Shown here: piece by piece, positions 24,434 to 44,327 of the stretch | How positions within the stretch are numbered: the first letter of the stretch is position 1 | Layout of the letters: every line of letters starts with the position of its first letter | Assembly (NCBI GenBank): GCA_005882715.1 | Contig: VBEI01000002.1 | Location: 1 to 53,292, forward strand | Source: Chloroflexota bacterium | Lineage (GTDB): Bacteria > Chloroflexota > Dehalococcoidia > SM23-28-2 > RBG-16-64-32 | Reading direction: 5' to 3' | Length of the DNA stretch: 53,292 bases | The notes under the pieces: generated by a model | The model's input: the letters and a program-made list of their open reading frames with translations, nothing else | What the model was told of the DNA's origin: nothing | Database searches by the model: none | Program-made: the position numbers and the translations under genes

Positions 24434-24436
24434 GGA

Positions 24437-24550: not shown

Positions 24551-24554
24551 TTGC

Positions 24555-24773: not shown

Positions 24774-24822
24774 TCAGCGGGTAGTTTCCATCACCTCCCG
24801 GATTCGGCCATCCAAAAGAGAT

Positions 24823-24851: not shown

Positions 24852-25074
24852 CGGGTAGCAGCGAGGCGGAGCTGCGCTCGGCCATCCCGGACGGAGGTGG
24901 GGGACACCCCCCACACCCCCGGCCTGCGGCGCCTCGCTAGGCTTTGCGGGCGATCCGAAGCGTTGCGCTACCGCTGTTTGGCGAAGCCAGAGATTCCCTC
25001 CTGCGGCGGCTGGGCCTTCGCCAGCTCCCCGCTGCCGCCCGCCCCACCCCGCAAGCTCGGAATGATAGGGTGCG

Positions 25075-26480: not shown

Positions 26481-26487
26481 CGGATGC

Positions 26488-27864
26488 CTAGCGGATGAAG
26501 CCTTCGTACTGGCGCATGAGCAGCTGGGCTTCGATCTGGCGGAGGGTGTCAAGAATGACGCCGACGACGATGATGAGACCGCTTGTCGTTATGCCAAGCG
26601 CGGTCTGACGGCCGCTCGTCGTACCGGCCCCCACAAGATGAGACGTGATGAAGGGGGCGACGGCGACGATGCCCAAGAAGAAGGCGCCGCCCCATGTGAT
26701 ACGCAGAAGGACGCGGTTGATGTAGTCCTCGGTCGGGCGCCCGGGACGGATTCCCGGGATGAACCCGCCCTGTCTCTGGAGGTTCTCCGCGAGATTTTGT
26801 TGCTGAAAGACGACGAGGGTATAGAAGAACGTGAACACGACGACGGTGACGAAGACGAAGGCCCAATACCAGACGTTACCGGGGTTGAAAGAGTTCTTGA
26901 GGAATTCCCCGGTGTTCGCCAGAAGGCTGTTGTCCGAGCTTTCCAGAGCGCTGCCTACGAAGGCCGGCATGATCACGATGGAGAATGCGAAGATGAGGGG
27001 AATCATCCCGGTGCTATTCACGCGCAAAGGGATATGTGTCTGACCGGACTGGCGGTACATGCGGCCTGAGCGAAAGACGCTCCGTGAGTACTGTACGGGG
27101 ATGCGGCGCTGCGCTTCCTGAAAAGTGACGATGAAGGCGACTAGGCCGACGATCATGATCGTGAGGAAGAAGGTGGCGGTGACGCCCTCGCCGGTACCGG
27201 TGTACAACCGCCCGCCGATGAACTGCGGCAGGCCGGCGATGATGCCGGCGAAGATGATGATCGAGATGCCGTTGCCGACTCCCTTCTCGCTGATCAGCTC
27301 GCCGAGCCAAACAAGAAACATCGTGCCGGCGGTCATCGTAATGATCGCGGAGAGCGTGGGTAAGGCGTCGGGGCCGGAAAGCGATGGCTGGGGGATGGCG
27401 CCCGGCGCAATGCTCTGGACGATGATGAGCTGCCCGTAGCCCTGCACGAAGGCCATAGGCACGGTCATCCAGTGCGTGTAGATGTTTAGCTGCTTGCGGC
27501 CCTGCTCGCCCTCCTTGGAGAGCGCCTGGAGGGCAGGCACGAGCGGCACCATCAGCTGCATGACGATCGACGAGGTTATGTAGGGATAGACACCCATCGC
27601 GACGACGCTCATGTGTGATAGCGCGCCCCCGCTAAAGATATTCATGAAACCGAGGACGGTGCTCTGCTTGAAGGCCTCATCGAGCTTCGACGGATCCACT
27701 CCCGGGACGGGGACATTGGAAACGAACCGGAAGATCACGATTAACCCGAACGTGAAGAGCAGCTTCTCGCGGATGTCCGGTTGGGCCATCGCGCTGATGG
27801 CCGCCTGAAGGAGCTGCGGACGCTGTGTCTGCTGCTGTCTACCCGCCGCTGCCATCGTCTTCAC
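26488..27864 (-). CDS. secY: Preprotein translocase subunit SecY
   Basis: Ten-TM pattern; IREKLLFTFGLIVIFR..GALSHMSVVAMGVYPYITSSI. The start is uncertain within the first 10 codons. Confidence 0.95.
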   Translation of the reverse strand: MKTMAAAGRQQQTQRPQLLQAAISAMAQPDIREKLLFTFGLIVIFRFVSNVPVPGVDPSKLDEAFKQSTVLGFMNIFSGGALSHMSVVAMGVYPYITSSIVMQLMVPLVPALQALSKEGEQGRKQLNIYTHWMTVPMAFVQGYGQLIIVQSIAPGAIPQPSLSGPDALPTLSAIITMTAGTMFLVWLGELISEKGVGNGISIIIFAGIIAGLPQFIGGRLYTGTGEGVTATFFLTIMIVGLVAFIVTFQEAQRRIPVQYSRSVFRSGRMYRQSGQTHIPLRVNSTGMIPLIFAFSIVIMPAFVGSALESSDNSLLANTGEFLKNSFNPGNVWYWAFVFVTVVVFTFFYTLVVFQQQNLAENLQRQGGFIPGIRPGRPTEDYINRVLLRITWGGAFFLGIVAVAPFITSHLVGAGTTSGRQTALGITTSGLIIVVGVILDTLRQIEAQLLMRQYEGFIR

Positions 27865-28414
27865 CTTCGGGTGCGTCCTCGCCGGCTGGCGCTTGGGAAG
27901 CCTGGGACGCGTCTTCGTACTTATCGTTCGGGACGGAACCGCGGTCGTGAGGTTTTTTCTTCTTGCGTTCGCCCAGTTCGACGACGGTCCCGCCCGCTGC
28001 CTCGATCTTTTCTCTGGCGTTGATCGAAAAACTGTGAGCGTGTACGGTGAGCTTCTTGGTCAGATCGCCGGCGGCGAGGACCTTGACAGGCTTCCTCAGA
28101 CTGCGGAGGATACCCTTTTCCTTCAGGAGCTGGGGAGTGACCTCAGAGTCTTTGTCGAAGCGCTCGAGGACGATCAGGTTGACTGCCTGGTACTCTACGC
28201 GGAAGGGGTTCGTAAAGCCGCGGCGGAAGGGGAGCTTCTTGAAGAGCCGTGTCTGGCCGCCCTCGAAGAAACGGCGGGGCTTGTTGCCCGCTCGCGCCTT
28301 TTGACCCTTCAGGCCACGCCCGGCAAAGGTACCCTGGCCGGCGGCGTTGCCGCGGCCGACGCGCTTGCGGGCATGCCTCGCCCCCGGTGGGGGTTTCAAC
28401 TGGTGGGCTTGCAT
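27839..28414 (-). CDS. rplO: 50S ribosomal protein L15 with an acidic C-terminal extension
   Basis: GARHARKRVGRGNAAGQGTFAGRGLKGQKAR. Tail is KKKKPHDRG..APEGEDDGSGG. Confidence 0.95.
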   Translation of the reverse strand: MQAHQLKPPPGARHARKRVGRGNAAGQGTFAGRGLKGQKARAGNKPRRFFEGGQTRLFKKLPFRRGFTNPFRVEYQAVNLIVLERFDKDSEVTPQLLKEKGILRSLRKPVKVLAAGDLTKKLTVHAHSFSINAREKIEAAGGTVVELGERKKKKPHDRGSVPNDKYEDASQASQAPAGEDAPEGEDDGSGG

Positions 28415-28605
28415 CAGTCCTGGGGGATCTCAGTCACCTCGACGAGGTGACGAACCTTTGTAATCATACCACGCAGGGGGCGGCTATCTTCCCGCTCAAC
28501 GCTCTGGCCAAGGCGCTTGAGTCCGAGCGCCTCGATCGTTCGTTTCTGGTTGTTTTGGTATCCAATCGCGCTCTTCTTCCAGGTGATACGAACCTTAGCC
28601 GCCAA
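28414..28605 (-). CDS. rpmD: 50S ribosomal protein L30
   Basis: TTG at 28605 gives [34 protein letters not shown]. The longer ORF overlaps rpsE. Confidence 0.9.
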
Positions 28606-29131
28606 CAGACGCCTCCGGGGAGACAGCGCGGCGGCGTTCGCGGACCTCATCGGGCGAGCGCAGGCGGGACAGTGCAAGCATCGTCGCTTTCACGGTGTTG
28701 GCCGGGTTGTTGGAGCCGAGGGACTTAGCAACGGCATCCCTAACGCCCGCCATCTCAAGCACCGCGCGCACGCCGCCGCCGGCGATAAGGCCTGTGCCTG
28801 GAGGTGCGGGCTTTATGAGCACTCTGGCGGCGCCGAAGTGGACAAGGAGGGGGTGCGGCACCGTGGTACCGTTCAGCGGAACACTGATCATGTGCTTGCG
28901 GGCTATCGTACCGGCCTTGCGGATCGCCTCGGGCACTTCGGTGGCCTTGCCCATGGCGGCGCCGACTCGCCCGGCGGTATCGCCGACGACGACGATGGCG
29001 GTGAAGTGAAAACGCCTGCCGCCCCTCATCACCTTGGCGACACGGTTGATGAAAACAACCTTTTCGGTGAGTTCTAAGGCAGCGGCATCGACCCGGTCTC
29101 TCTTGGCGATGTATTTGCGTGGATTTGACAT
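28595..29131 (-). CDS. rpsE: 30S ribosomal protein S5
   Basis: [24 protein letters not shown]. Confidence 0.96.
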
Positions 29132-29141
29132 TAGCGGCTTC

Positions 29142-29510
29142 CTAGAATGTGAGTCCAGCTTTGCGGGCGGCCTCCGCGAACGCCTTCACGCGGCCGTGGT
29201 ACATGAACCCGCCGCGGTCGAAGACGACGGAGCCAATGCCTTTTTCCTTCGCTCTTTTGGCCAGCGCCTCGCCGACCAGCCCGGCAACTTCGCTCTTCTT
29301 TTTGCCATCGCGTACCGATTTGAGATCGGCTTCGAGGTCGCTAGCAGAGACGAGCGTGTGGCCCGCACTATCGTCAATGAGCTGTGCGTAAATGTGGTTC
29401 AGGCTGCGGAAGACGGCTAAGCGTGGCCGCTCGGTCGTACCCGTCAAGCGTTCACGGACGCGAAGGTGACGTCGCGCCCGGGCAGCGCGGGGTAGACGTG
29501 ACTTCTTCAT
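29142..29510 (-). CDS. rplR: 50S ribosomal protein L18
   Basis: ATG at 29510: [42 protein letters not shown]. Confidence 0.95.
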
Positions 29511-29520
29511 AGGTGCGTTC

Positions 29521-30066
29521 CTAGTGGGTCGCCTTGCCGGCTTTGCCGGCCTTGCGGCGCACGTATTCGCCAGTGTAGCGAATGCCTTTGCCCTTGTATG
29601 GCTCGGGTGGCCGGATCTTGCGAACGTCGGCGGCCGTTTGGCCGACCTGCTCCCTGTTGATGCCCTTGACGGTGATCTTGGAGGTACCTTCGACCTCGAA
29701 CTCGATGCCGGGCGGGGGCGGCACATTCACCGGATGCGAATAACCAATCGCCAGCACGAGGTTTCTGCCCTGCATCTGTGCTCGATAGCCGACGCCCTGG
29801 AGCTCCAGTGTCTTGCTGAAGCCGGCGGTGACGCCGGCGACCATATTTGCGACCAGCGAGCGGGTGAGGCCATGCATCGCACGGTGTCGGGGCTGCTCAC
29901 TGGGGCGGGAAACAACGATCTGTCCGTCCTTCTGCTCGATCCGCATTTCGCGATTGAGCTCGCGGCTCAGTTCGCCCTTGGGTCCCTTAACGGCGACGTG
30001 CGTGCCGTCGATGCGGATCTCCACCCCGGAAGGGATGGCGATCGGCATTTTCCCTACTCTCGACAT
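29521..30066 (-). CDS. rplF: 50S ribosomal protein L6
   Basis: [31 protein letters not shown]. Confidence 0.96.
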
Positions 30067-30070
30067 CGGT

Positions 30071-30466
30071 TCACCACACGTAGCAAAGTACTTCGCCGCC
30101 CACGCCGCGGCGGCGGGCTTCCTTACCCGTCATGACGCCCTCCGGAGTAGAGAGGATAGCGACACCGAGACCTCCATAGACGCGCGGGATCTCGCGCTTG
30201 GCCGCATAGACGCGCAAGCCCGGGCGGCTTACGCGCTGGAGGCCCATAATGACCGGCTCGCGCGCGGGTGTATAAGCGAGATGGATGCGGACATTCTTGT
30301 GCGTACCCTCACTCCGGACCTCGAAGTCGCCGATGAACCCCTCGTTCTTAAGGACCTGAGCCAGCGCAACCCTAGTTTTGGAAGCGGGCATGTCTGTGTG
30401 GTCGTGGCGGGCAACGAGCGAGTTCCTGATCCTGGACAACATGTCGGCGATGGGATCGGTAACCAT
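30071..30466 (-). CDS. rpsH: 30S ribosomal protein S8
   Basis: ATG at 30466: [16 protein letters not shown]. Confidence 0.95.
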
Positions 30467-30470
30467 AACG

Positions 30471-30659
30471 CTACCAGCTGGACTTCTGCACACCCGGGAT
30501 GTGGCCTTCCAGAGCGAACTTGCGGAAGCAGATGCGGCAGAGGCCGAACTTGCGGATGTAGGCGCGCGGGCGTCCACAAAGGCGGCAGCGGTTGCGGAGG
30601 CGGCCTGGGAACTTGGGGGGCTTGTTGAAGGTCTTCTCGTAAAGCGCCTTTCGCGTCAT
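30471..30659 (-). CDS. rpsN: 30S ribosomal protein S14, type Z (zinc-binding, 61 aa)
   Basis: [23 protein letters not shown]. Confidence 0.95.
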
Positions 30660-30671
30660 CTGGTCCTCTAC

Positions 30672-31220
30672 CTAGCCTCGCCTGGCGAACGGCATGCCCA
30701 ACAACTCGAGCAGCCGCTGCCCCTCTTCGTCTGTCTTTGCGGTCGTGCAGATCGTTATTTGCATGCCGCGAATCTTGTCGATTTTGTCGTACTCGATTTC
30801 CGGGAAGATGACCTGCTCGCGGATGCCCAGGCTGTAGTTGCCCCGGCCGTCGAACGAGTTTGGAGACACGCCCTGAAAGTCGCGAATGCGGGGCAGAGCG
30901 GCGTTCAGCGTGCGGTCAAGGAACTCCCACATGTGATCGCCTCGGAGCGTGACCATGACGCCGATGGGCATGCCCTCGCGGAGCTTGAAGTTCGCTATCG
31001 ACTTCTTCGCCCGGGTAATCACTGGATGCTGGCCGGTAATTGTCGCGATGTCGGTGGAAGCGGCGTCGAGCGCCTTTGCGTTCTGGACAGCCTCCCCGGT
31101 GCCGACGTTCAGGGTCACCTTCTCTACGCGCGGCGCTTGCATGGCGTTAGCGTAGCCGAACTCCTTGACTAGAGCCGGTACGATCTCTTCCCGGTAGCGT
31201 TCTTTCAATCGCGGTGGCAT
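30672..31220 (-). CDS. rplE: 50S ribosomal protein L5
   Basis: ATG at 31220: [30 protein letters not shown]. Confidence 0.95.
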
Positions 31221-31230
31221 CTGTTCTGTC

Positions 31231-31578
31231 CTAATCCTGGTTCGCGTCACAGCGCTTGCAGTAGCGCACTTTACGCCCATCCGCCTGCCGGCGGAAGCCG
31301 ACGCGGGCGGGTTTGCCACAGGAAGCGCAAACAAGCGCCGTGTTCGCCCACGATATGGGGGCTTCGCGGTCAACGATGCCGCCAGGCTTTTGAGGGCCGC
31401 GGGGCTTCATGTGCCGCTTGACCATGTTGATTCCGGTGACGATGAGGCGCGGCGGCCGCGGCTGACCGAGCTTGCTGATTTTGCCGGTACCGAGGAGCAC
31501 CTTGCGCACCTGCCCGGTGCGGCCCCTGTCCTTGCCTTTGGTTATGAGGACCGTATCATCGCGCTTAATCTTTTGCAT
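31231..31578 (-). CDS. rplX: 50S ribosomal protein L24 (C-terminal CxxC..CxxC)
   Basis: [22 protein letters not shown]-terminus CASCGKP..YCKRCD. Confidence 0.95.
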
Positions 31579-31580
31579 TT

Positions 31581-31949
31581 CTACACGACCTCTGGCGCCA
31601 GCGAGACGATCTTCATGAAGTTGCGCTCTCTCAGCTCGCGAGCTACGGGCCCGAAAATGCGGGTGCCACGCGGGTTGAAGGCGTCCGAGAGGACCACGGC
31701 GGCGTTCTCATCAAAGCGGATATACGAGCCGTCGTTGCGCCGGTATGGCTGCGCGGCACGCACTACGACCGCGCGGACGACTTCGCCCTTCTTGACGCCG
31801 CCCATGGGAGTGGCCTGCTTGACAGAGGCGACGATAATATCGCCCACGGTGCCGTAACGACGCCGGGAGCCGCCGATAACCTGAATGCACATCAGTTGCC
31901 GGGCGCCGGAGTTGTCGGCCACCTTGAGGCGGGAGTAAGACTGAATCAA
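31581..31949 (-). CDS. rplN: 50S ribosomal protein L14
   Basis: [20 protein letters not shown] start overlaps the rpsQ stop. Confidence 0.96.
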
Positions 31950-32587
31950 GAGGGCTGCTCCTCTGCCGACTCTTCAGCAGCCTCTGCCGATTCTTCAGCG
32001 GCCTCCGGCGGTTCTTCGTCGGCCTCCGGCGGTTCTTCAGCCTTCTCTGCCGGCTCTTCCGGGGCCTCTTCTTGCTCTTCGCCGGCCGGCTCCTCGGCTT
32101 CGGCCTCGACGGCTTCGATTTCGGGTACCTCTTCGGCCACCTCGACCTCCTCGGGCACAACGGCTTCGGCCGCAGGACCAGCGACCGCTTCCGCGGGGAC
32201 GGTCTCTTCGCTCTTGGCCTTCGCGCCACCGCGCGGCCTAGGTGCCTCTTCGATTTCCGGCTCTTCGGGCTTAACCTCGCCCAACAACTCGAGGTCGATC
32301 GATTCCGGCGCCACTTCAGGAAGCTCCGCTCGAGTCAGGACTTCGAGCAGGCGCCAGCGCTTGCGCCGAGAGATAGGCGCGGCCTCGATGATGCGGACGC
32401 GGTCTCCCAACTGCGCTTCCTCAGCCTCGTCGTGAGCCATCAGCCGGCGTACGCGGCGTACTGTCTTCTTGTACAAGCGGTGGCGGAAGTTGGCCTCGAC
32501 GGCGACGACGACCGTTTTCTGCATCTTGTCGCTGACGACGGTGCCGTCGCGGACTTTGCCGCGCAGGCCGCTCTGCTTGGCAGTCAT
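31946..32587 (-). CDS. rpsQ: 30S ribosomal protein S17 with an acidic C-terminal extension of about 125 aa
   Basis: Core is [40 protein letters not shown]. It is followed by an E/A/P-rich tail that ends exactly at the rplN start. Confidence 0.93.
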
Positions 32588-32820
32588 TTGCGCGGTGCCT
32601 GACCGCCGACTCGGGCCAGCTGTCGCTGTTGCTCGATGGTTTTGAGGCGGGCGATGTGACGCTTCATTTTCGGCAGCTCCTGGTAGTTCGTGAGCTGCCG
32701 AGTCTCGCGCTGGAGACGCATAGAGAAGAGGCGGCGATGGGCCTCCTCCAGCTCCTTGCGCAGGTCCGTTTCGGAGAGCTTGCGGATATCGTCGAGTTTG
32801 GTCTTCAGCTTCTTCGCCAT
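32584..32820 (-). CDS. rpmC: 50S ribosomal protein L29
   Basis: LRKLSETDLRKELEEAHRRLFSMRLQ. Confidence 0.94.
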   Translation of the reverse strand: MAKKLKTKLDDIRKLSETDLRKELEEAHRRLFSMRLQRETRQLTNYQELPKMKRHIARLKTIEQQRQLARVGGQAPRK

Positions 32821-32823
32821 CGA

Positions 32824-33237
32824 TTACATCTCCGGCCTTGCCACGAAGCGCGTGGGGATGGGGAGCTTGTGGGCGGCGAGGCGCATGGCTTCACGCGCGG
32901 TCTCTTCCTGGACACCAGCGATCTCGTAGATCATGCGGCCCGGGCGAACGACGGCCACCCACGCTTCGACGGGGCCCTTGCCGCTTCCCTGACGGACCTC
33001 GAGCGGCTTCTTGGTGATCGGCTTGTCGGGGAAAACGCGGATCCAGAGCTTGCCACCGCGGCGGACGTAGCGTGTAATGGCGCGACGGCCGGCCTCAATC
33101 TGGCGGGCGGTGAGCCAGCACGGCCCAAGAGCCTGCAGGCCGTAATCGCCGAAGGTGACGTGGTTGCCGGCTGTGGCCATGCCACGCCGGCGGCCACGGT
33201 GCGCTTTGCGGAACTTCGTCCGCTTAGGCTGTAGCAT
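32824..33237 (-). CDS. rplP: 50S ribosomal protein L16
   Basis: ATG at 33237: [19 protein letters not shown]. Confidence 0.95.
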
Positions 33238-34030
33238 CGCCGCTCTCCTGCTGAGCTGGCTCCGGAGGAGGTTCCGCCGCTGCCGCCTCTGCGCTCGCTT
33301 CCGACGGCTGGTCGGGGCCGCCAGGCGCCGCAACCCCGCCCGCTTGTGGTTCACCGCTGGCCGCGCGTGCCTTTTCAAGCGCGCTGACCGGGGGCGCCGT
33401 CCGCTCCGAGATCTTGTCGCCCTTGTATATCCAGACCTTGACGCCGATGCGGCCGAGCGTGGTGCGGGCTTCGGCAGTGCCGTAGTCGACATCCGCCTTC
33501 AGCGTGTGCAAGGGGACCCGGCCCTGCCGTTCCTGGTCTCTGCGAGACATGTCGGAGCCCCCGAGCCTCCCTGCGATGCGGATGCGCACGCCCTGGGCGC
33601 CGCGCTGCATTGCCCGTAGCGCTGCTTGCTTGATGGCGCGGCGGTGCGAGACGCGGCGCTCTATCTGCTCGGCAACCGCCCGGGCGACGAGCGGCGCTTC
33701 GATTTCCGGGAGCCGCACCTCGTTGATGTTGACGCGAACGCGGCGTCCGCTCGTTTTTTCGAGCCTGCCGCGCAGCTCATCTACGCGCTGGCCGCCGCGG
33801 CCGATGACGATTCCCGGACGCGCTGTGTGGATGCTGACCGTGATCTGGTTGGCGTTTCGCTCGATCTCGACGCGCGAGATGCCGGCATCAGGCAGCATCC
33901 GCTCGATCGAGCGGCGGATGCGCAGGTCCTCGTGCAGCTGCTCAGTATAGTTCTTGTCGGCGTACCACTTGCTGTTCCAGGTATAGATGTAGCCGAGGCG
34001 AAAGCCGTGGGGGTGAACTTTCTGGCCCAT
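33224..34030 (-). CDS. rpsC: 30S ribosomal protein S3 with a C-terminal A/P/E-rich extension
   Basis: [24 protein letters not shown]..; the KH domain pattern is present. Confidence 0.96.
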
Positions 34031-34368
34031 CAGCCGCCTTCCTCCACGATGATTGTGATATTGCTGCGGCGGCGGCGAATGATATCAGCGCGGCCGCGCG
34101 CACGCGGGGTCATGCGGCGCAACTTAACGCCGTCGCCGACGAATGCGCGCGTGACCCGCAGATGTCTGGGGTCCATGTTGTAGTTGTTTTCGGCGTTGGC
34201 GGCGGCCGAGCGTACGGCCTTGGCAATCGTCCGAGCGTGCGGACTTTGCATGAAGCGCAGGATAGACATCGCCTCATCGACACGCTTGCCGCGCACTTCG
34301 TCGAGAATGAGGCGCACCTTCTTGGGCGCGACCTGGGCGCCCCTCATGTACGACTTAACGGCGACCAC
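34030..34368 (-). CDS. rplV: 50S ribosomal protein L22
   Basis: RGAQVAPKKVRLILDEVRGK. Confidence 0.95.
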   Translation of the reverse strand: MVAVKSYMRGAQVAPKKVRLILDEVRGKRVDEAMSILRFMQSPHARTIAKAVRSAAANAENNYNMDPRHLRVTRAFVGDGVKLRRMTPRARGRADIIRRRRSNITIIVEEGG

Positions 34369-34658
34369 TATTTCTTCCTCACCTGGCTGACCTGCGCGGA
34401 ACGGCTGGTATGCCCGCGGTAGGTGCGAGTCGGCGCAAATTCGCCGAGCTTGTGCCCGACCATGTTCTCAGTGATGAAGACGGGCACATGGCGGCGGCCG
34501 TCGTGGATGGCGATGGTGAGGCCGACCATTTCAGGCAGAATGGTCGAGCGGCGCGACCAGGTGCGGATGACGGCCTTCTGGCCCGATTGCTGCACCTTCA
34601 TCACCTTGGCGATCAGCTTGGCGTCCGCGAACGGGCCTTTCTTCGTCGACCGGGACAT
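34368..34658 (-). CDS. rpsS: 30S ribosomal protein S19
   Basis: [38 protein letters not shown]. Confidence 0.96.
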
Positions 34659-34661
34659 CGT

Positions 34662-35492
34662 CTAAACCTGGTACCTGCGGCGGACGATGTATTTGTTGGT
34701 GTCTTTGCGGCGGCGCGTGCGGGCGCCCAGCGTGGGCTTTCCCCACGGGCTGCGCGGCCCCGGGAGGCCGATCGGTGCGCGGCCCTCACCACCGCCGTGC
34801 GGATGGTCTCGCGGGTTCATGACGGTGCCACGCACGCTCGGCCTGCGGCCCATCAAGCGCTTGCGCCCGGCCCTTCCCAGCTTGACCTGGCTGTGCTCGA
34901 CGTTGCCGACCTGGCCGATCGTGGCCATACAATCCGCGTGGATGCGCCGGACTTCACCCGAAGGCAGCCGCACGAGCGCGTAATCCCCTTCGCGGGCGAG
35001 GAGCTGGGCGGAGCCGCCGGCGCCGCGAACGAGCTGGCCGCCTTTGCCCTTGTGCATCTCGAGGTTGTGGATTGTCGTGCCGGAAGGAATGTTGCGCATG
35101 GGGAGCGCGTTGCCGGGCTTGATCTCGGAGTTGGGGCCGGCCATTACGCTGTCGCCGATTTTGAGGCCTACCGGCCAGAGGATATAGCGCTTCTCGCCGT
35201 CCGCGTAGTGGACGAGGGCGATGCGGGCGGAGCGGTTCGGGTCGTACTCGATCGAGGCGATCTTTCCCGGGACGCCGGTCTTGTCACGGCGAAAATCGAC
35301 GATGCGCAGGCGACGCTTGGCCCCGCCGCCGCGATGGCGTACGGTGATTCGGCCCTGGTTGTTGCGCCCGGCCTGGCGCCGCAGAGGGGCGACGAGGGAC
35401 TTCTGCGGCTTCGAGCGCGTGATCTCGTCGAAGCTGTGCCCGCTGGCGCCGCGGCGGCCGGGAGAGGTGGGCTTGTACTGCTTGATCGGCAC
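34662..35492 (-). CDS. rplB: 50S ribosomal protein L2
   Basis: [33 protein letters not shown]. Confidence 0.97.
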
Positions 35493-35493
35493 G

Positions 35494-35793
35494 CTAGACG
35501 CCCTCGAACAGCTCGATCTTGTCGCCGGGGGCGAGCGAGACTACGGCCTTCTTCCAATTCGGCCGGTGCTTGATGCGGTTGCCCCGCGCCCGGCGCGGCT
35601 TGCCCTTCATGACCATTACGTTGACATCTGTCACTTTTACATCGAACCCTTTTTCGACCGCATCCTTGATCTGGACCTTGTTCGCTTCCGGACGCACCTC
35701 GAACATGTACTTATTCTCGCCGCCGAGGCGCGTCGCTTTCTCCGTAATCATCGGCCGGATCACGATGTCGAGACTATGCAGTTCTCTACCCAT
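35494..35793 (-). CDS. rplW: 50S ribosomal protein L23
   Basis: [33 protein letters not shown]. Confidence 0.95.
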
Positions 35794-35980
35794 GAGCCAG
35801 CCTCACGCTCCTTCGAACGAACTCAGGAAGCCACAACCCGCAAGGGCGCCGGACCGGCGCGGAGTGCGGGCGCGCCCGCCTGCGGCGGACTATCGCACTT
35901 TAATAACGCCGCCCGTGGCGCTGGGTACGCTTTGTGCGCCGGACACGCGTCAACGAGGCATCCCGCCAGGCGGGACGCCG

Positions 35981-36021
35981 GATAACCTATAACAGTGTAC
36001 AGGGATTTGCGTGTGGGTCAA
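35981..36021 (-). promoter_or_regulatory. Candidate promoter module upstream of rplW (TTGACC-16 nt-TACACT followed by GTTATAGGTTATC); copy A of a 41-nt duplicated module
   Basis: Minus strand reads TTGACCcacacgcaaatccctgTACACTGTTATAGGTTATC. It matches 43426-43466 upstream of rplC at 36/41 positions, and all 5 mismatches fall in the spacer. Confidence 0.55.
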
Positions 36022-36043
36022 GCGAGCGAATCGTGGTAAGCGG

Positions 36044-36208
36044 TCAGTTTGTCTGGCAGGCTATCGCGACGGGTGTAGGTGGGGTCGGCAGACTGTCAAG
36101 GCAGTCTTGATATTGATCATTGGGGTCGACAGGACCAGATCTGAATACCATCACCATAACAAGCAGAAATACACTGAGAACTACGATTACGGTCAGAGCC
36201 CACCTCAC
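36044..36208 (-). CDS. Possible small membrane protein (54 aa from GTG)
   Basis: Hand translation gives VRWALTVIVVLSVFLLVMVMVFRSGPVDPNDQYQDCLDSLPTPPTPVAIACQTN*. It lies between the pckA stop and the rplW promoter module. No clear RBS was seen. Confidence 0.25.
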   Translation of the reverse strand: MRWALTVIVVLSVFLLVMVMVFRSGPVDPNDQYQDCLDSLPTPPTPVAIACQTN

Positions 36209-36246
36209 GCCGCGCTTGTAGCGCAGACGCGGGCTTGCGTCAACCG

Positions 36247-37833
36247 TCAGACGCCGGCGCGGATGTAGCCGTCGAGGCCCGGGAAGCTCTCGAGACAGGC
36301 GCGGCGCTCGGCCTTGAGGCGCTCGACCCAGGAGCGGTAATCGTCCAGCCGGCCGAGGGCCTCGAAGCGCTCCCTGGGTTGGAGTAGGTCCTCGTCCTCA
36401 GGTGCGATTCCGGGGACGCGGACGGGCAGCTGGTAGCCGAAGTCGGGGTCGGTGAACCACTCGAGGCCGCCCTCGGCGATGGCCCGCATACAGGCGGAGG
36501 AATGCTCGACGGTGACCTTCTTGGAGTCCGGGCCGCTGTCATCGACGATCCAGCCGGTGTTCATCAGGTAGACATCGATCGGGTGTGTGCGCAGCAGCTC
36601 GAGGAAGCGGTTGCCCTGGAGCTCGTTGGGTAGAGGGAAGAACGGGTTGGTGCCGGGCACGCGCAGCGACTTGCCGGCTTCATCTTTGCCCCCCGCGCTC
36701 GTGCCCTGGGTCTCGCCGAGCATGAAGTAGGCGGCGGCCTGCTGTTCGCTCAGCTTCGCGAGCGCCGGAACGACGCTGCGTGCGCGGTTGAGAATGACGA
36801 TGGCGTTGACGGGGCCAATGTTGTTGGCGTCCTCGTACCGCCCGAGCGCCTCCAGGTGGAACACGGCGCGGCCATTTTGCGTGAAGGACTCGTTGAAGAA
36901 GTCCGGGGTGCCATCCTCGCTGAGGTAGACGTTTTCGAGGTAAGCGATCGGGCTCGTGACGGCTCGATAAATCTCGGGCTCGTGCTCTGGGGAAAGCGAG
37001 AAGGTCTTCGCGAAGCAGCCGTTCTCGGTGCCGTAGACCTTGCCGCCGCGCATCAGAGCGATGAAGTCGTCCTGGACGGCTTTGGAGTCGCCCTGCCTTC
37101 GGAAGGTGGTGGTCGTCTTCCCGGTGCCCGAGAGGCCGATCACGACGATCGTCTTCTCGCCCTGCGCCGTCGGGATGACCTTGCATCCGGCGTGCATGGG
37201 CAGGCCGCCCTTGTCGTAGACGATCTTGTTCCACATGCGCAGGCCGCCCTTCTTCGACTCGCCGAAGTAGTCTGAGTTGAGGACGCGCGTGACGCCGTTC
37301 TCGAGGTCTACTGCGATGCAGCGGTCGTTCGGGTAGCCGGGGGCGGCCAGGTTCGGTGTGTCGATGACGGTGACTTGAGGGTCGCCGTCGGCGCGTTCGA
37401 AGTAGAGGAATTTCTGCATGCCGGCGACATTGGCGTTGGCGCGCTCGATGACCAATCGAGCGGCCGTCTGCACTTCTTTCGCGTTTGAGATGTAGCCGTC
37501 GATGACGATCATCGGCCGGCCGGCGATGTATTCTTCCTGCAGGCGGGTGATCTCTTCGTACTCGGCCCGCGGCATGGTCTGGTGGCCGCGATATTCTTCC
37601 GGCGTTTCAGTGACGATGTAGGTCGAGCCGCTGCTGCGCGAGTCCACGCTGGTGAAGACGTCGACGCTGCCGTAGGCCGTCCGCTTGGCGTTGGGCATCT
37701 GGAGCGTGAGGCGGCGCAGCTGCTCCTGAGGCGGGTTGTCGAGGACCACTCGGGGCCGCATCTCATGCGCCGGTTCGTGCAGGACGACCATTCTTTCCTC
37801 CCTTGGGCTAGGGTCAAAAGTGCTTCTCATCAT
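36247..37833 (-). CDS. pckA: Phosphoenolpyruvate carboxykinase (ATP)
   Basis: IGLSGTGKTTTT kinase-1a P-loop, ENGCFAKT, NTGW motifs; 528 aa. Confidence 0.9.
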   Translation of the reverse strand: MMRSTFDPSPREERMVVLHEPAHEMRPRVVLDNPPQEQLRRLTLQMPNAKRTAYGSVDVFTSVDSRSSGSTYIVTETPEEYRGHQTMPRAEYEEITRLQEEYIAGRPMIVIDGYISNAKEVQTAARLVIERANANVAGMQKFLYFERADGDPQVTVIDTPNLAAPGYPNDRCIAVDLENGVTRVLNSDYFGESKKGGLRMWNKIVYDKGGLPMHAGCKVIPTAQGEKTIVVIGLSGTGKTTTTFRRQGDSKAVQDDFIALMRGGKVYGTENGCFAKTFSLSPEHEPEIYRAVTSPIAYLENVYLSEDGTPDFFNESFTQNGRAVFHLEALGRYEDANNIGPVNAIVILNRARSVVPALAKLSEQQAAAYFMLGETQGTSAGGKDEAGKSLRVPGTNPFFPLPNELQGNRFLELLRTHPIDVYLMNTGWIVDDSGPDSKKVTVEHSSACMRAIAEGGLEWFTDPDFGYQLPVRVPGIAPEDEDLLQPRERFEALGRLDDYRSWVERLKAERRACLESFPGLDGYIRAGV

Positions 37834-38165
37834 AATCGGAAAAGTAAGCGATTACGCGTCCGAACGCGCCGAGAAGCATTAATTCTGCGTAAGAAATTAG
37901 TTGGCAGATTATGAGCGCCAATGGATCGGCAGCCTGAACGCATCAGGCCGACTCGACACTGAAGCAAGCGGAATGATCCTCCTTCGAGCTCCGTCCTGGG
38001 CTGCCGCATTGGATGGCCGTGAGCCTACCCGCCGGCGACCGGTTCTGTCAAGCAGCGTGATCGGAGCACGCGAAGTAACGACGCGGCCCCCACGATGCGA
38101 GATGCAACGACAGCGCGCTGGTCGCGTCTCTTATTGGGCGAACAATAACGACGTATAGGGCGGTT

Positions 38166-39737
38166 ATGTTAAACTGCATGAGCCCCATTCTTCAACTCCA
38201 CCGACAACTGTCGAATGGTCTTGACGTCGTTCGGCGAAGCAGTGAGGGATGTTTGCGTCTGTCGTCTCTAACGACAAAGACAAACCTGCGCTGGGCATGC
38301 GCGTCTGCGGCTGTGTCGGCAGTCCTAATATTCGCAGCCAGCGGACAGAGCGGGGGCACACGGCCGCAGAACCTGAGCGCCGCGTCTCTGAAAACCGCTG
38401 ACCCCACACCGAGACCGACGGCGAAGCCAACGCCCGCACCGACGGCGGCGCCCACACCGGCGCCAACGCCCGCTCCAACTCCCGAACCGCCACCGCCACC
38501 CCCGCCTATAGCGCCCGAGCCGGAGCCGGTCGCGGCGTCCGGGCCGGCGCCACTCCCGGGCACGGGGCCGAACTACTACGTCGACGATGTCAACGGGAAC
38601 GATGGCAACGGCGGCACCAGCGAGTCGGCCGCGTGGCGCAGCCTGGATCGCGCCAGCGACTTCACGATTCCCCCCGGCGCACGCCTGCTGTTCCGCCGAG
38701 GCGGAGCGTGGGCCGGGACGCTGAAGATCGAGGAGAGCGGTGCCGGAGGCCTCCCGGTGGTGATCGGGTCCTACGGCAGCGGCCCTCTTCCGGTGATCCA
38801 GGGCGCGAACGACTGCATCGCGCTCTTCGGCTCCGGAATCATCGTCGCGCAAATGCAGATGCAGGACTGCTGGTCGGGGGTCAGGATTCCAGCTGGGGCT
38901 TCGTCGAACCGCGTGCAGGACAGCGTGCTCGCGGGAAACGTCGCGGGCGTGCTGGTCAGCGAGGGCGCCTCCGACAACGCGATCATCGGTAACACATTCC
39001 AGAACAACAACAAGATGTCCGTGAATACACCGGGCGGATACGACGACTCGGGGGCGTTTGGCGTTCTGCTGAACGGCGACCGCAATGAGGTCGCGTATAA
39101 CCAGATCTCCGGGAGCGACGCCTTCTCCTACGACTACGGGCGGGACGGCGCAGCCGTCGAGATCTACAAGGGCCAGGGCAACAGCATCCACCACAATACG
39201 GCGGTCGATAACCATGCGTTCAGCGAGCTCGGCGACCCACGCACTCAGGACAACACGTTTGCGTACAATCTAGTGCAATCGTCTCTGCCCGACTCGACGT
39301 TCCTGGTGACCAGAGGCGGCCAAGACGGGCATGGGCCGGTGGTGAACACGAGGCTCTTCAACAACACCGTCGTCATGACGGGGCCGGGCAGCCAGGGCTT
39401 CGTCTGCCACGGTGGGTGCAACGGCGGCGTGCTCACGATGAGGAACAACGTCATCCAGGCCGTACAGAAGGCTGGGTATGCCGACGGCGCCTTCGACGAG
39501 GACTATGACTTCTACGCCGGCGGCATAACACAGTTCCCGCTCGGGCCCCACAGTGCGGTCGGCAACCCGATGTTCAACGACCCGTCAGGGGGCGACTTTC
39601 ATCTTGCCGGTGGCAGCCCGGCCGTCGACAGCGGTATCGACACGGGATACAGCGCAGATCTCGAAGGCCGGAGTGTGCCACGGGACGGAAACGGAGATGG
39701 GTTTGCCGTTGCGGACAGAGGCGCCTTCGAGCGCTAG
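38166..39737 (+). CDS. Secreted right-handed parallel beta-helix repeat protein with a Pro/Thr/Ala linker
   Basis: Signal-like LRWACASAAVSAVLIFAASG, then a PTPAPTAAPTPAPTPAPTPEPPPPPPP linker and beta-helix repeats. C-terminus DPMFNDPSGGDFHLAGGSPAVDSG..DRGAFE. The likely true start is TTG at 38253, after GAGGGA. Confidence 0.75.
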   Translation: MLNCMSPILQLHRQLSNGLDVVRRSSEGCLRLSSLTTKTNLRWACASAAVSAVLIFAASGQSGGTRPQNLSAASLKTADPTPRPTAKPTPAPTAAPTPAPTPAPTPEPPPPPPPIAPEPEPVAASGPAPLPGTGPNYYVDDVNGNDGNGGTSESAAWRSLDRASDFTIPPGARLLFRRGGAWAGTLKIEESGAGGLPVVIGSYGSGPLPVIQGANDCIALFGSGIIVAQMQMQDCWSGVRIPAGASSNRVQDSVLAGNVAGVLVSEGASDNAIIGNTFQNNNKMSVNTPGGYDDSGAFGVLLNGDRNEVAYNQISGSDAFSYDYGRDGAAVEIYKGQGNSIHHNTAVDNHAFSELGDPRTQDNTFAYNLVQSSLPDSTFLVTRGGQDGHGPVVNTRLFNNTVVMTGPGSQGFVCHGGCNGGVLTMRNNVIQAVQKAGYADGAFDEDYDFYAGGITQFPLGPHSAVGNPMFNDPSGGDFHLAGGSPAVDSGIDTGYSADLEGRSVPRDGNGDGFAVADRGAFER

Positions 39738-39850
39738 CTCCGGGCCTCGCCGTCGGTAGCGCCCTCGCACGAACCGATGCAACAGGACGGCGGACGCCGG
39801 TGTCTTTAGTACTCAGGCGCGATAAGGCGCGGCAACCAGGAGGCAATGCA

Positions 39851-40648
39851 TTGATCGATCCTCAAGCACAAGGCCAGGGGCGTTTTCTTGGCTTCACGCC
39901 CAGGCAGTTGAACGTGGGGTTCTTGACTGCCGTTGGCGCGGCAGCCGCCGGCATCTGCGTGTGGCTGTTTGCTTTCGGCGGCCTGGACTCAATTACCGGA
40001 GACAGCACAACCGAAGAAGGCGTCGTGGACACTACGGCTCGCGAGATATCAAACGCGGACCTGGAACGTATCGCACTCCGACCGGAGCAGTTCCCGACAG
40101 AGTACGCAGGCTTTGCCGCAGACGAGGACAACGGGCCACTCACGCTTGAGAAGAATGCGAACCAAGCGTTCGATCCGATCGAACAACGCGCACAGTTCGA
40201 GAGTTCCGGTTGGGTCACAGGCTACGATGCCGCATATAGAGATCGCCAACCGGCGCCCGACAAGGCGTTTTTTCTCGACACTCAGCTAGACCTCTTCAAG
40301 ACGGTGGATGGAGCGGCGGGCTTCTTCACAACGCAAATGGCGGAAGCGACGCAACATCAGGGCCAGGCGAAGGACAACGTTACCGAGGTTGAGGCCTCGC
40401 TATTCGATGTATCGGTCGCCGAACAATCAGCTGGCTTCCGCGGTCACTATAGGGTTCAGCTTGAAGACGGCTCGCAGCGCGAATATTGGCAGATCGGCAT
40501 CGCGTTCCGGCGCGGTCGCCTGCTTGGCAGCGTCACTTTGGCCGGACTCGAACTGAGCGACGCCGGCAGGCAGGTCCTCGAGGGACACGCCGCGGACCTG
40601 GCGAATAGATTGAACAACCAAATGACGGCCGCGCTGTCGACTCGCTAG
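39851..40648 (+). CDS. Hypothetical membrane-anchored protein
   Basis: TTG at 39851 lies 7 nt after AGGAGG. There is one N-terminal TM (FLTAVGAAAAGICVWLFAFGG). No family was recognised. The ORF track starts it at 39800. Confidence 0.55.
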   Translation: MIDPQAQGQGRFLGFTPRQLNVGFLTAVGAAAAGICVWLFAFGGLDSITGDSTTEEGVVDTTAREISNADLERIALRPEQFPTEYAGFAADEDNGPLTLEKNANQAFDPIEQRAQFESSGWVTGYDAAYRDRQPAPDKAFFLDTQLDLFKTVDGAAGFFTTQMAEATQHQGQAKDNVTEVEASLFDVSVAEQSAGFRGHYRVQLEDGSQREYWQIGIAFRRGRLLGSVTLAGLELSDAGRQVLEGHAADLANRLNNQMTAALSTR

Positions 40649-40654
40649 CGAACC

Positions 40655-41065
40655 CTAACACTCGACGCCGACCGGTTCGGTCACCGGGGTCTGGTCTGAG
40701 GCGGACCCGCGGTGGCGCACAACTGCCGCCACGCTTACAACAGCAACGACGGCGGACATCGCCATAACGGAACCAGCGGGCGGCGCGAACCCAGTGAGAG
40801 CGCGGATCAGATACACCACATATGAGTCCGTGTAAGGCATTCTTTCACCGGCGCGGTGACGTAGCGCCTGTTCGAGGGCGACAAGCGGGCATTGTCCAAG
40901 GAAAGCCCGGCCCGTGACCATGATGGAGATCGCCAGGTTGTGGAGACGCCATAAGACCCGCTTCCCGTGGTAATAACCGAGATACGCGAGGACCGCCGAT
41001 GGGAGTGCGAGGACGACAAACACGCCGTGGAGAACAAACACCCAGTCCGCCAGCAATGCGAGCAT
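40655..41065 (-). CDS. DUF2784-like membrane protein
   Basis: ATG preceded by AGGAGG. VFVLHGVFVVL..GQCPLVALEQALR pattern. Confidence 0.6.
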   Translation of the reverse strand: MLALLADWVFVLHGVFVVLALPSAVLAYLGYYHGKRVLWRLHNLAISIMVTGRAFLGQCPLVALEQALRHRAGERMPYTDSYVVYLIRALTGFAPPAGSVMAMSAVVAVVSVAAVVRHRGSASDQTPVTEPVGVEC

Positions 41066-41793: not shown

Positions 41794-42732
41794 CTAGCTC
41801 GCCTCGTCGACCTTTCTGGTTCGGCGGCGCGCAGCCGGGCGAGTCTCCGCCTCCGGCTTGGGCGCTTCTTCGGCGGACAGCTCGGGTGCGGTTTTCGCGC
41901 GGCGGGTGGGCCGCTTCGGCTGCCGCTCCTCGGCCGCCGTCGCTTCGGGTGCGGCGGCAGCGCGGCGGGCGCGCGGTTTCGGCGACGTCGCTTCGGCGAC
42001 GGCCTCCGCCTTCGCTGGCTCAGGCTGCGCGGCCGGTTTGTCGGCCTTCGCGCGGCGCTGTCCGTCCGTCCGCTTAGGCCCTTCCGCTGTCGCGACGGGC
42101 GCCACGCGCTTGCTGCCCCAGAGGCCTTCTGCGACTTTGACCGCTTCCTCCGTCATGAGCAAGTGAGCATGGTTCAGCATATCGCCGACGTTCAGGTACG
42201 CCGCCGGGAGCACCTTCGTCTTCTGAAGATTTCGGGCGCTGGCGAGGATCGACCTGTCCGCCTGCCCGGTGACGATCAGCGCCGAGCGCTCGATTCCGAC
42301 ATTGCGTAGGATGCTCAGCATTTCCTTCGTCTTCGGGGCCTTGAATGCCAGCTCATCGATCACAATGAGCTGGCCGTCCGCGACCTTCCCGGAAAGCGCG
42401 GACCTTATGGCGAGGCGCCTCATCTTCTTATTGATTGCGAGGCCGAAGTCGCGCGGCTGCGGCCCGAAAACGATGCCTCCGCCGACGTAGATCGGCGCGC
42501 GGATGCTGCCGTGGCGGGCGCGGCCGGTGTACTTCTGCATGCGGACCTTGCGGGTGCTGCCCTGCACCATGCCTCGCGTCTTCGTATTAGCCGTGCCCGC
42601 GCGCTGGTTGTTGCGCTGGGTGACGAACGCCTGGTGAAGGACGGCCTCGTTCGGCTCGATGCCAAATACGGAGTCATCGACGTCGAGGCTGCGCAGCTCC
42701 TTGCCCTGCGCGTTGACGACCGGGAGCTTCAT
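41794..42732 (-). CDS. rplD: 50S ribosomal protein L4 with a C-terminal A/K/P/E/R-rich extension of about 105 aa
   Basis: The L4 core runs MKLPVVNAQGKE..RQKYTGRARHGSIRAPIYVGGG up to ..EEAVKVAEGLWG, followed by a low-complexity tail. Confidence 0.94.
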   Translation of the reverse strand: MKLPVVNAQGKELRSLDVDDSVFGIEPNEAVLHQAFVTQRNNQRAGTANTKTRGMVQGSTRKVRMQKYTGRARHGSIRAPIYVGGGIVFGPQPRDFGLAINKKMRRLAIRSALSGKVADGQLIVIDELAFKAPKTKEMLSILRNVGIERSALIVTGQADRSILASARNLQKTKVLPAAYLNVGDMLNHAHLLMTEEAVKVAEGLWGSKRVAPVATAEGPKRTDGQRRAKADKPAAQPEPAKAEAVAEATSPKPRARRAAAAPEATAAEERQPKRPTRRAKTAPELSAEEAPKPEAETRPAARRRTRKVDEAS

Positions 42733-43361
42733 TTCTTGGCCCGGCGTCCGGTGAGCCTGACCTTCAAAAGAACGCCCTCGTTGCCGGGAACGGCGCCCTT
42801 CACCATGAGGATGCCCTTCGCCGAGTCAGAGCGCACAACTTTGAGGTTCTTGACTGTGGCCTGCCCCGTGCCCATGTGGCCGGCCATCTTGACACCCTTG
42901 ATCACGCGACCGGGGTCCGTGCCGGCGCCGATGGAGCCAGGCGCGCGTGCGCGGTCCGACTGGCCGTGGGTCTTCGGGCCGCCGCGAAAGCCGTGGCGCT
43001 TCATGACGCCCGCGAAGCCGTGGCCCTTGGTCGCGCCGGAAACGTCGACGATGTCGCCCGGCTCGAAAATCTCGCAACCGACCTTCTTGCCGACTTCCCA
43101 TTCACCGATATTGTCAACGCGCAGCTCGCGCAGGTAGCGGAACTGGCCGAGCTTTCGCATATGGCCTTTAAGGGGCGAGTTGACCTTTTTGCGCGTGCCA
43201 AAGCCCAGCTGCAGCGCCTCGTAGCCGTCGCTCTCCTTGGTCTTGACCTGGACGACGGTGCAGGGAAGCGCCTCGATCACGGTTACAGGCACGGCGCTGC
43301 CGTCAGGCTCGAACACCTGCGTCATACCGATCTTGCGCCCCAGAATGCCTTCGATGGTCAT
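42729..43361 (-). CDS. rplC: 50S ribosomal protein L3
   Basis: GILGRKIGMTQVF..VSGATKGHGFAGVMKRHGFRGGP. Confidence 0.96.
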   Translation of the reverse strand: MTIEGILGRKIGMTQVFEPDGSAVPVTVIEALPCTVVQVKTKESDGYEALQLGFGTRKKVNSPLKGHMRKLGQFRYLRELRVDNIGEWEVGKKVGCEIFEPGDIVDVSGATKGHGFAGVMKRHGFRGGPKTHGQSDRARAPGSIGAGTDPGRVIKGVKMAGHMGTGQATVKNLKVVRSDSAKGILMVKGAVPGNEGVLLKVRLTGRRAKK

Positions 43362-43425
43362 GGTTAGTCTCGAATCGCTTGTACGCCCGCGCGCGACAGC
43401 CGGTCACGACGTCCCATGGCGTGGG

Positions 43426-43466
43426 GATAACCTATAACAGTGTACAGAGATTCACGTTGGGGTCAA
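43426..43466 (-). promoter_or_regulatory. Candidate promoter module upstream of rplC (TTGACC-16 nt-TACACT followed by GTTATAGGTTATC); copy B
   Basis: Minus strand reads TTGACCccaacgtgaatctctgTACACTGTTATAGGTTATC, about 70 nt upstream of the rplC ATG. It is near-identical to 35981-36021. Confidence 0.55.
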
Positions 43467-43628
43467 TCGCCTGGTGTGCGGGTCCGGGTTGAGGCCCCGC
43501 TCTCACTGGTTGATGCTTTGAAGTTCGTATTGTAATTCGCTCCAGTACTTACGAAAGAATTCTGAGTTCCTTACACCGGGTCGTGGTCCCGCGCCCCGCT
43601 GTCGATAGCGACATATTCCCGATAATCT

Positions 43629-43694: not shown

Positions 43695-44327
43695 GTGACA
43701 ACGCGGGACGAACAAATGCGGCATCAATTGGTCTCCCCGGCTGGGGTCTATCCTCCGGCTCGAATGGAGGGCATTGCTGAAGAAGAACTCGCTCGACTGC
43801 TGAAAGAGCGTTCAATAGCGGCCTGGGAATTCTTGTTCGAGCGGCATTTCGATCGGGTCTATCGGTATGCCCTTGGCCGCTTATTCTGCCGAGAAGCAGC
43901 TGAGGACGTTGCTGCTGCAACTTTTGACCGGGCATTGGCCCTGATAGACGGCTACTCATACCGCGGGCGGCCCGCACTCGCCTGGCTCTACGGAATCGCG
44001 CGTAATGTCGTGAAGGAATCGCGGCGCAATGACGTTCGCCAGCAAGGCGCGGGACTGCTCAGGGGGTTGCATCCCCATCGTAACGGTCACCGCACAGACC
44101 ACGTGATCCCGCTGAACCATATGGATAGCGCTGACGCCGCCGTATCCCGGATCGACCTGACTCGTGCGATTGCCAGGCTTACGGAGATCCAGCGTGAAGT
44201 GGTGCTTCTCCGATACTTCGCCGGCCTTTCGGCAAGTGAGACCGGCCGCGTAATCGACCGCCCCGAGACGGCTGTCTACGCGCTGCAGGCGCGCGCGCTG
44301 GCGGCGCTGCGGCGGCAACTCACCTAA
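43695..44327 (+). CDS. ECF-type RNA polymerase sigma-70 family factor
   Basis: Region 2 is FERHFDRVYRYALGRL..WLYGIARNVV. Region 4 is LTEIQREVVLLRYFAGLSASETGRVIDRPETAVYALQARAL. Confidence 0.85.
   Translation: MTTRDEQMRHQLVSPAGVYPPARMEGIAEEELARLLKERSIAAWEFLFERHFDRVYRYALGRLFCREAAEDVAAATFDRALALIDGYSYRGRPALAWLYGIARNVVKESRRNDVRQQGAGLLRGLHPHRNGHRTDHVIPLNHMDSADAAVSRIDLTRAIARLTEIQREVVLLRYFAGLSASETGRVIDRPETAVYALQARALAALRRQLT

Follow-up and report, generated by a model that had tools for sequence, protein, structure and literature searches.

The 53,292-nt stretch of Chloroflexota DNA analyzed here (hereafter, the window) carries two copies of a 41-nt module, one upstream of rplW (positions 35981–36021) and the other upstream of rplC (43426–43466), both on the minus strand and both oriented towards the gene that follows. 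At a probability of roughly 0.8, the comparative evidence identifies them as paralogous housekeeping promoters of the sigma-A/sigma-70 type that would serve the two orphaned fragments of a broken ribosomal protein operon. The proposal, put forward in an earlier sequence-only reading of this DNA, that copying of a promoter kept rplW expressed once the cluster had been split fits all the tests applied, namely the pattern of the sites, their retention throughout the clade, their absence from unsplit relatives and their restriction to two gene starts. This retention, absence and restriction, like the identity, orientation and position of the copies, are shown by the sequences; we infer which sigma factor recognizes the copies, where exactly transcription starts, how strong the promoters are and how they were duplicated.

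The minus-strand reading of 35981–36021 is TTGACCCACACGCAAATCCCTGTACACTGTTATAGGTTATC and that of 43426–43466 is TTGACCCCAACGTGAATCTCTGTACACTGTTATAGGTTATC. Parsed as a promoter, the rplW-side copy (36021–35981) reads TTGACC CACACGCAAATCCCTG TACACT GTTATAGGTTATC, with the putative -35 hexamer at 36021–36016, a 16-nt spacer and the putative -10 hexamer at 35999–35994. The rplC-side copy (43466–43426) reads TTGACC CCAACGTGAATCTCTG TACACT GTTATAGGTTATC, with the hexamers at 43466–43461 and 43444–43439, again separated by 16 nt. On the basis of the pattern scan and of the relatives described below, a discriminator GTTATA was assigned to the rplW-side copy, with a predicted +1 G at 35987 (alternatively, the A at 35988); the predicted +1 of the rplC-side copy is the G at 43432. 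Direct comparison of both copies bore out the reported identity at 36 of 41 positions and the confinement of all five mismatches (module positions 8, 9, 13, 14 and 19) to the 16-nt spacer. The identical 22-nt block does exist, but it is made up of CTG, with which the spacer ends, and the 19 nt that begin at the -10 hexamer, instead of 22 nt counted from the -10 hexamer as had been described. A repeat finder returned the same pair as a 45-nt direct repeat with 87% identity (35980–36024 and 43425–43469). Even when three mismatches were tolerated, the 22-mer GATAACCTATAACAGTGTACAG had no more than these two occurrences in the window and none in 100 dinucleotide shuffles, and the chance expectation for such 41-nt pairs in 53 kb was about 1.6e-6 (binomial estimate).

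The abrupt end of the similarity on both sides was also confirmed: the upstream DNA is unrelated and, beyond +8, the leaders aligned no better than shuffled sequences (local alignment score of 18 versus 16.0 ± 2.4 in shuffles, p = 0.23). Homology beyond the 41 nt, which the words GGGAYGCC, GTGAC and TGTCC shared by both leaders had suggested by eye, was discarded because the alignment stayed at this dinucleotide-shuffle level. When the rplW leader was compared by BLAST with rplC-rplD and with unsplit loci, only chance words were retrieved; the resemblance to the rplD end of unsplit relatives is limited to some 20 nt surrounding the Shine-Dalgarno sequence of rplW. The module lies 71 nt from the start codon of rplC and 194 nt from that of rplW.

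With regard to the gene context, Pfam scans agreed with the previous description of a split ribosomal protein cluster; about 6 kb of unrelated genes lie between rplD and rplW. The rplC (42729–43361, Ribosomal_L3) and rplD (41794–42732, Ribosomal_L4) genes, both on the minus strand, form a two-gene remnant of the old S10 operon (41794–43361). They are separated from rplW (35494–35793, minus strand) by a block (36247–41065) comprising the genes for PEPCK (36247–37833, minus strand), a beta-helix protein (38166–39737, plus strand) and a DUF2784 protein (40655–41065, minus strand), as well as an unknown ORF (39800–40648, plus strand). Behind the rplW promoter lies the distal fragment of the cluster (21347–35793, minus strand), which starts with rplW, rplB, rpsS, rplV, rpsC and rplP, includes secY, adk, map, rpsM, rpsK, rpsD and rpoA, and ends with rplQ (21709–21347). 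A second break is located upstream, where rplC lacks a preceding rpsJ gene and a divergently oriented gene for an ECF-type sigma factor (43695–44327, plus strand) sits at the place that rpsJ occupies in unsplit relatives; the upstream neighbor at this position varies among relatives. Since PEPCK homologs have 514 amino acids, the 528-aa ORF annotated in the window probably begins at a later ATG.

Several other features of the window were recorded. Downstream of the ECF sigma factor gene lies an ORF without a Pfam match (44369–45442, plus strand), possibly encoding its anti-sigma factor, which harbors in-frame imperfect repeats (45229–45402, with starts 24, 39 and 48 nt apart) rich in Ser, Asn and Gly. 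Among the proteins encoded on the minus strand, L4 (312 aa, 41794–42732), S17 (213 aa, 31946–32587), S3 (268 aa, 33224–34030) and RpoA (428 aa, 21716–23002) are unusually long, and the Lys/Ala/Pro-rich tail of L4 is also present in unsplit relatives. Two unusual domain fusions are encoded on the plus strand: a GH2-type TIM barrel joined to a family-2 glycosyltransferase (47080–49581, 833 aa), and an ABC exporter, with transmembrane and ATPase parts, joined to an APH-type phosphotransferase (49578–52337, 919 aa). No tRNAs were found in the window. The L23 protein is present without changes on many soil-metagenome contigs and in one NCBI MAG; the window comes from a soil lineage of Chloroflexi that is uncultured.

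For the comparison with relatives, contigs carrying L4 homologs were retrieved by protein similarity. In the unsplit relatives L018, L099 and L101, the genes follow the order rpsL-rpsG-fusA-rpsJ-rplC-rplD-rplW and onwards, with 3-nt gene junctions; the module is absent from all three, and a different site (TTGACA-17-TAnnnT) precedes rpsL. The L100 locus, whose L4 protein is 65% identical, represents an intermediate state, with rpsJ, 5.6 kb of foreign genes, rplC-rplD, PEPCK and rplW in succession. The order in L017 is rplC-rplD-PEPCK-rplW, extra genes lie between rplD and PEPCK in L015, L016 and the window, and further contigs place rplC-rplD or rplW within other neighborhoods. The module was found at both sites in all split relatives (L014 to L017, L100, CF_23 and CF_163), down to an L4 identity of 65%. 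In most of the split clade, PEPCK is the constant neighbor upstream of rplW and, because no other gene stands between rplD and rplW in L017 and L100, it looks like the original insertion.

Three side observations concern these neighborhoods. In L015, a gene for an IS1595-family transposase (8340–9197) is located directly upstream of the rplC promoter, a placement which fits the very fluid neighborhoods of both promoter copies. In one unsplit sister lineage, an MNT nucleotidyltransferase/HEPN pair with overlapping junctions interrupts the otherwise continuous cluster between rpsJ and rplC (L018, 8578–9372; L103, 6344–7094; also L104 and L105); pairs of this kind are typical of toxin-antitoxin modules. 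Finally, the interval that separates PEPCK from the rplW promoter in the window holds a small single-pass membrane ORF containing DASPRLRYKRGVRWALTVIVVLSVFLLV (about 36040–36250, minus strand), and a divergent homolog is found in L014 upstream of the rplC promoter (about 8900–9250, reverse strand); this pair may be a trace of rearrangements or a coincidence.

A simple promoter scan called both copies as TTGACC-16-TACACT in gene orientation. Compared to the consensus TTGACA-17-TATAAT, the -35 hexamer matches at five of six positions and the -10 hexamer at four of six (9/12 in total), with the A at position 2 and the T at position 6 of the -10 hexamer being present. The scan was not significant on its own, as it returned six sites in 16 kb when 3.2 were expected; the pattern TTGAC-N16–19-TAnnnT occurred four times when both strands of the entire window were counted, and two of these occurrences are the modules. 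Other assignments of the -10 element were rejected on inspection: TGTTATAGG as an extended -10 element does not end in the T that is essential there, and the conserved TTGACC would then lie 24 nt from it, and TAGGTT is too distant from the -35 hexamer.

Conservation was assessed in a set of 13 sequences (7 from rplW and 6 from rplC sites, with L4 identities of at least 65%), which had been found via the proteins and not via the motif. In all 13, TTGAC, the TG before the -10 hexamer, TACACT, GTTA and the GG at +1/+2 were invariant, including both non-consensus C residues of the -10 hexamer. The proximal half of the spacer (AATCYCTG) and the discriminator (GTTAnA) were fixed as well, while the distal spacer and the 30 nt upstream could not be aligned and the upstream region of PEPCK next door showed no conservation over the same distances. 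These profiles support the view that the constrained positions are those that a promoter would need, with the distal spacer and everything outside -35 to +8 drifting freely. They also refine what had been described as an identical 22-nt block: a core from about -22 to +2, together with the -35 hexamer, is invariant throughout the clade, but TTATCC at +3 to +8 varies at both sites in distant lineages. The invariance of the -10 C residues, the proximal spacer and the discriminator exceeds the constraint usual for promoter recognition alone.

This excess speaks for a dual role, in which the core (about -22 to +2, AATCYCTGTACACTGTTAnRGG) would belong to a promoter and at the same time bind a clade-specific regulator, or make a special contact with the polymerase or a sigma factor for growth-rate control, so that both fragments would be switched together. 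Non-consensus -10 bases, proximal spacer and discriminator are kept in both paralogs across the clade, which is more than hexamers need, even as the adjacent PEPCK promoter drifts, and the block includes both a palindrome (TGTACA) and a direct repeat (GTTAT-N2-GTTAT). However, extended dyad symmetry was not seen beyond these 6 nt and the GTTAT repeated with a 7-nt period; TTATCC, which includes the second GTTAT unit, drifts in distant lineages; and no conserved regulator gene lies nearby, the neighbors varying among relatives. Nor was a third site found in GTDB (exact 19-mer), in the listed metagenome matches or in the 658 kb of related loci. The same footprint could result if a highly expressed promoter were under strong selection for its open-complex kinetics, and we regard the dual role as rather unlikely. 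If it were true, a control site would have been installed at both breakpoints, keeping the orphaned fragments stoichiometric, and the core together with the undescribed rplW leader would mean that the regulation of the fragmented S10 operon had been rebuilt.

The sequence-only reading had left undecided whether the promoter was copied or convergently retained, and the comparison among lineages favors copying. The spacers of the two paralogs agree at 11 of 16 positions in the window and at 14 of 16 in the deep-branching L100, and they do so at positions which vary among lineages. This sharing of freely varying spacer positions, together with a sequence that is not optimal, favors duplication of one ancestral sequence over two independent promoters that selection for an optimal strong promoter had driven to the same sequence. 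Such convergence would be helped by the same selection acting on both sites, and it would account for flanks without homology; a copying unit of just 41–45 nt is mechanistically awkward, which counts against the duplication that we prefer. Nevertheless, the spacer agreement, the departure from the consensus optimum (TACACT and a 16-nt spacer) and the different appearance of the rpsL promoters in unsplit sister lineages render convergence improbable. In a search for the str/rpsJ promoter of the split clade as a possible donor of the module, both contigs retrieved through S10, a protein too conserved to single out the lineage, turned out to be from unsplit lineages.

Regarding the age of the duplication, spacer position 13 is a T in nearly all rplC copies and a C in nearly all rplW copies, a paralog-specific mark that points to an old event followed by separate evolution without ongoing gene conversion. 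In L017, the rplC copy is intact and the rplW copy has drifted (GTTAAAGGCTTTGG), and this drift, together with the T/C mark, led us to reject a homogenization of the two copies by concerted evolution or gene conversion. The copies therefore evolve independently of each other, and the modules of the window owe their identity to purifying selection and not to gene conversion.

The distribution of the module was examined at several scales. Among GTDB representatives (one genome per species), the exact 19-mer TACACTGTTATAGGTTATC occurred three times: one contig of the MAG 'Chloroflexi bacterium CF_23' carries it twice, ahead of rplC and ahead of rplW, and 'CF_163' carries it once, ahead of rplW. 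A metagenome scan with the pattern TTGACC-N14-TGTACACTGTTA returned at least 80 loci, and, of the 80 matches listed, 33 were followed by rplC, 33 by rplW and 10 lay on truncated contigs with either leader, which adds up to 76 rplC- or rplW-type sites; the remaining 4 were AT-rich chance matches, and no third class of site was present among the 80. A search for a 17-nt core in 658 kb of related loci, with a tolerance of three mismatches, gave 99 matches, every one of the promoter type. Throughout GTDB, the listed metagenome matches and these loci, the module was thus restricted to the starts of rplC and rplW, and it is not scattered in the manner of a generic repeat.

This restriction bears on the alternative that the copies are no promoters at all, and that they represent a dispersed repeat, the ends of a mobile element or direct repeats left by the insertion or recombination of a 7.4-kb segment. 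The copies do flank 7.4 kb as direct repeats, in neighborhoods of very fluid gene order and with the IS1595 transposase gene of L015 beside an rplC copy. The flanked segment, however, contains the essential rplC and rplD genes, and the spacing between the copies varies: L017 and L100 have nothing but PEPCK between rplD and rplW, the neighbors on the upstream side differ in L003 and L014, and the P0044 contig has no rplW within 10 kb. The module always stands in gene orientation at a fixed distance to the rplC or the rplW leader. Considering also the lack of further copies in GTDB, in the listed metagenome matches and in the 658 kb of loci, we deem an origin of this kind extremely improbable.

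Transcription data were available as metatranscriptome contigs, that is, as assembler contigs of 2–5x depth from related strains, so that the positions given here are contig ends and not read ends. Four such contigs lie over the rplW leader and end at 35971 (X25), at 35959 and 35908 (X27) and at about 35976 (X29); the three farthest ends fall 11–28 nt short of the predicted +1 at 35987. The region 35977–36200 was covered by no metatranscriptome contig (2–5x deep, related strains), and DNA-derived contigs cross the module. In the case of rplC, one RNA contig with a CF_23-type leader reaches 36 nt upstream of the ATG. Three additional runs (X30 to X32), inspected over 35700–36250, are labelled RNA-Seq with a library source given as METAGENOMIC; their contigs cross the promoter into the flanks of other strains and, because they behave as DNA, they were treated as such and excluded as transcription evidence. 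The contig ends are consistent with initiation at the module.

The same contigs are relevant to the idea that the module is transcribed from farther upstream and acts as an element in the RNA. Its direct contact with conserved, structured leaders would suit such a role. Against it, the upstream DNA is unrelated between lineages, the metatranscriptome contigs (2–5x) never cover the module, hexamers with fixed spacing are a signature at the DNA level, and no sequence was seen with which the block could pair; a function in RNA is very improbable. Some transcription from upstream might nonetheless reach rplW. PEPCK is co-oriented with rplW and, in L017 and L100, it ends about 60 nt before the -35 hexamer, with no convincing intrinsic terminator found between PEPCK and the rplW promoter in these two loci; read-through from PEPCK could also feed rplW.

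Downstream of the promoters, the leaders differ. The earlier description missed, between the module and rplW, a long structured leader of 194 nt (35794–35987, minus strand), which a covariance model and the Rfam search point out as a candidate ribosomal protein leader. It begins with a short 5' tail (GGUUAUCC), followed by a covarying 5' hairpin and by three or more additional helices; a CUUCCU upstream of the Shine-Dalgarno sequence of rplW (AAGGAG) is paired with it. The proposed structure comprises 30 pairs in 4 helices, with 93.5% of pairs formed versus 42–55% for slid partners, in an alignment fitted to a model built from the same sequences. Twelve pairs were changed on both sides, and these counts lean towards the proposed structure, again under the same-sequence model; none of 500 shuffles reached the structure score. 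The covariance model recovered one copy per locus in the split clade, including that of L100, which had not been used for model building, and gave no match in unsplit relatives.

The predicted rplC leader is shorter (71 nt, 43362–43432, minus strand) and starts with the same tail, so that both predicted transcripts run from GGUUAUCC directly into a GC-rich hairpin. In the rplC leader, the hairpin GGGACGYCGUGACCGGCUGUC is conserved, and the rest is unrelated to the rplW leader. A search of the whole window against Rfam at the gathering threshold gave no credible match; in E-value mode, the best hit for the rplW leader was nhaA-II with a non-credible E value of 3.1, and nothing credible was obtained for the rplC leader. 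The 5' UTR of rplW is a candidate for a new ribosomal protein leader.

Based on these observations, the following course of events is proposed. In an ancestor of this clade of soil Chloroflexi, a continuous rpsL-rpsG-fusA-rpsJ-rplC-rplD-rplW cluster would have been broken twice, once at the rpsJ-rplC junction and once at the rplD-rplW junction, with PEPCK entering the latter, and a single promoter sequence would have been placed before both orphaned fragments. Transcription would start at the invariant GG (35987 and 43432), yielding transcripts that begin with GGUUAUCC and continue into structured leaders specific for each fragment. The same promoter at both sites would provide equal transcriptional input and thereby a balance of ribosomal proteins, leaving the fine tuning to the differing leaders.

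As a mechanism this is conventional: a housekeeping promoter before orphaned genes, that is, a clean and ordinary rescue of expression after an operon split. The case is of interest mainly because it is evolutionarily well documented and because its conservation is unusually strong. Few gene arrangements in bacteria are as stable as the str-S10-spc cluster, and how its breakage is survived is a real question in operon evolution, for which this clade offers a clear natural example in which the unsplit, the intermediate and the split state can all be observed. Here, the break within the S10 operon was accompanied by two promoter copies, which selection then froze while L4 diverged to 65% identity. 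Furthermore, the analysis supplies a phylogenetically footprinted promoter for an uncultured group of soil Chloroflexi without promoter data, and draws attention to a leader RNA of rplW that had not been described. We found no account of this split, of the motif or of a Chloroflexi rplW leader in the literature.

With regard to known systems, the modules resemble sigma-70/sigma-A promoters in having ordered and oriented hexamers before highly expressed genes and a 16-nt spacer within the usual range, but differ from them in that the proximal spacer and the discriminator are conserved as strongly as the hexamers. Their TG abuts the -10 hexamer directly, whereas the TG of a canonical extended -10 element sits one base away. 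The rrnB P1 promoter of E. coli is growth-rate-controlled and has a 16-bp spacer and a special discriminator, and B. subtilis has +1G promoters that sense GTP. With such promoters, tuned for growth rate, the modules share the 16-nt spacer and a conserved discriminator, and they show an invariant GG at the predicted start; in contrast to the G+C-rich discriminator of rrnB P1, theirs (GTTATA) is A/T-rich. By analogy, the 16-nt spacer, the fixed discriminator and the invariant GG suggest selection on initiation kinetics and not on binding alone.

Like the ribosomal protein leaders compiled in Rfam, the 5' UTR of rplW is conserved and covarying, lies upstream of a ribosomal protein operon and has its Shine-Dalgarno sequence sequestered, but it matches no family. 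A survey of such leaders contains neither an rplW-first leader nor one from Chloroflexi (Eckert & Weinberg 2020; PMC7247131). In a study of the evolution of the cluster (Brandis et al. 2019; PMC6735719), terminator-promoter overlaps were described to resist separation, and promoter duplication was not described. The unsplit relatives, for their part, show the same gene order as the str-S10-spc-alpha super-cluster of E. coli. In that super-cluster, the S10 promoter is followed by a leader under the control of L4; long structured leaders between promoter and first gene are a further point of resemblance, although those found here are without an Rfam match. Both in clusters of the E. coli type and in the present clade, insertions separate operons in some lineages. 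What sets the present case apart from the E. coli super-cluster is that the S10 operon itself is interrupted, both ahead of rplC and behind rplD, and that the resulting fragments carry copies of one promoter.
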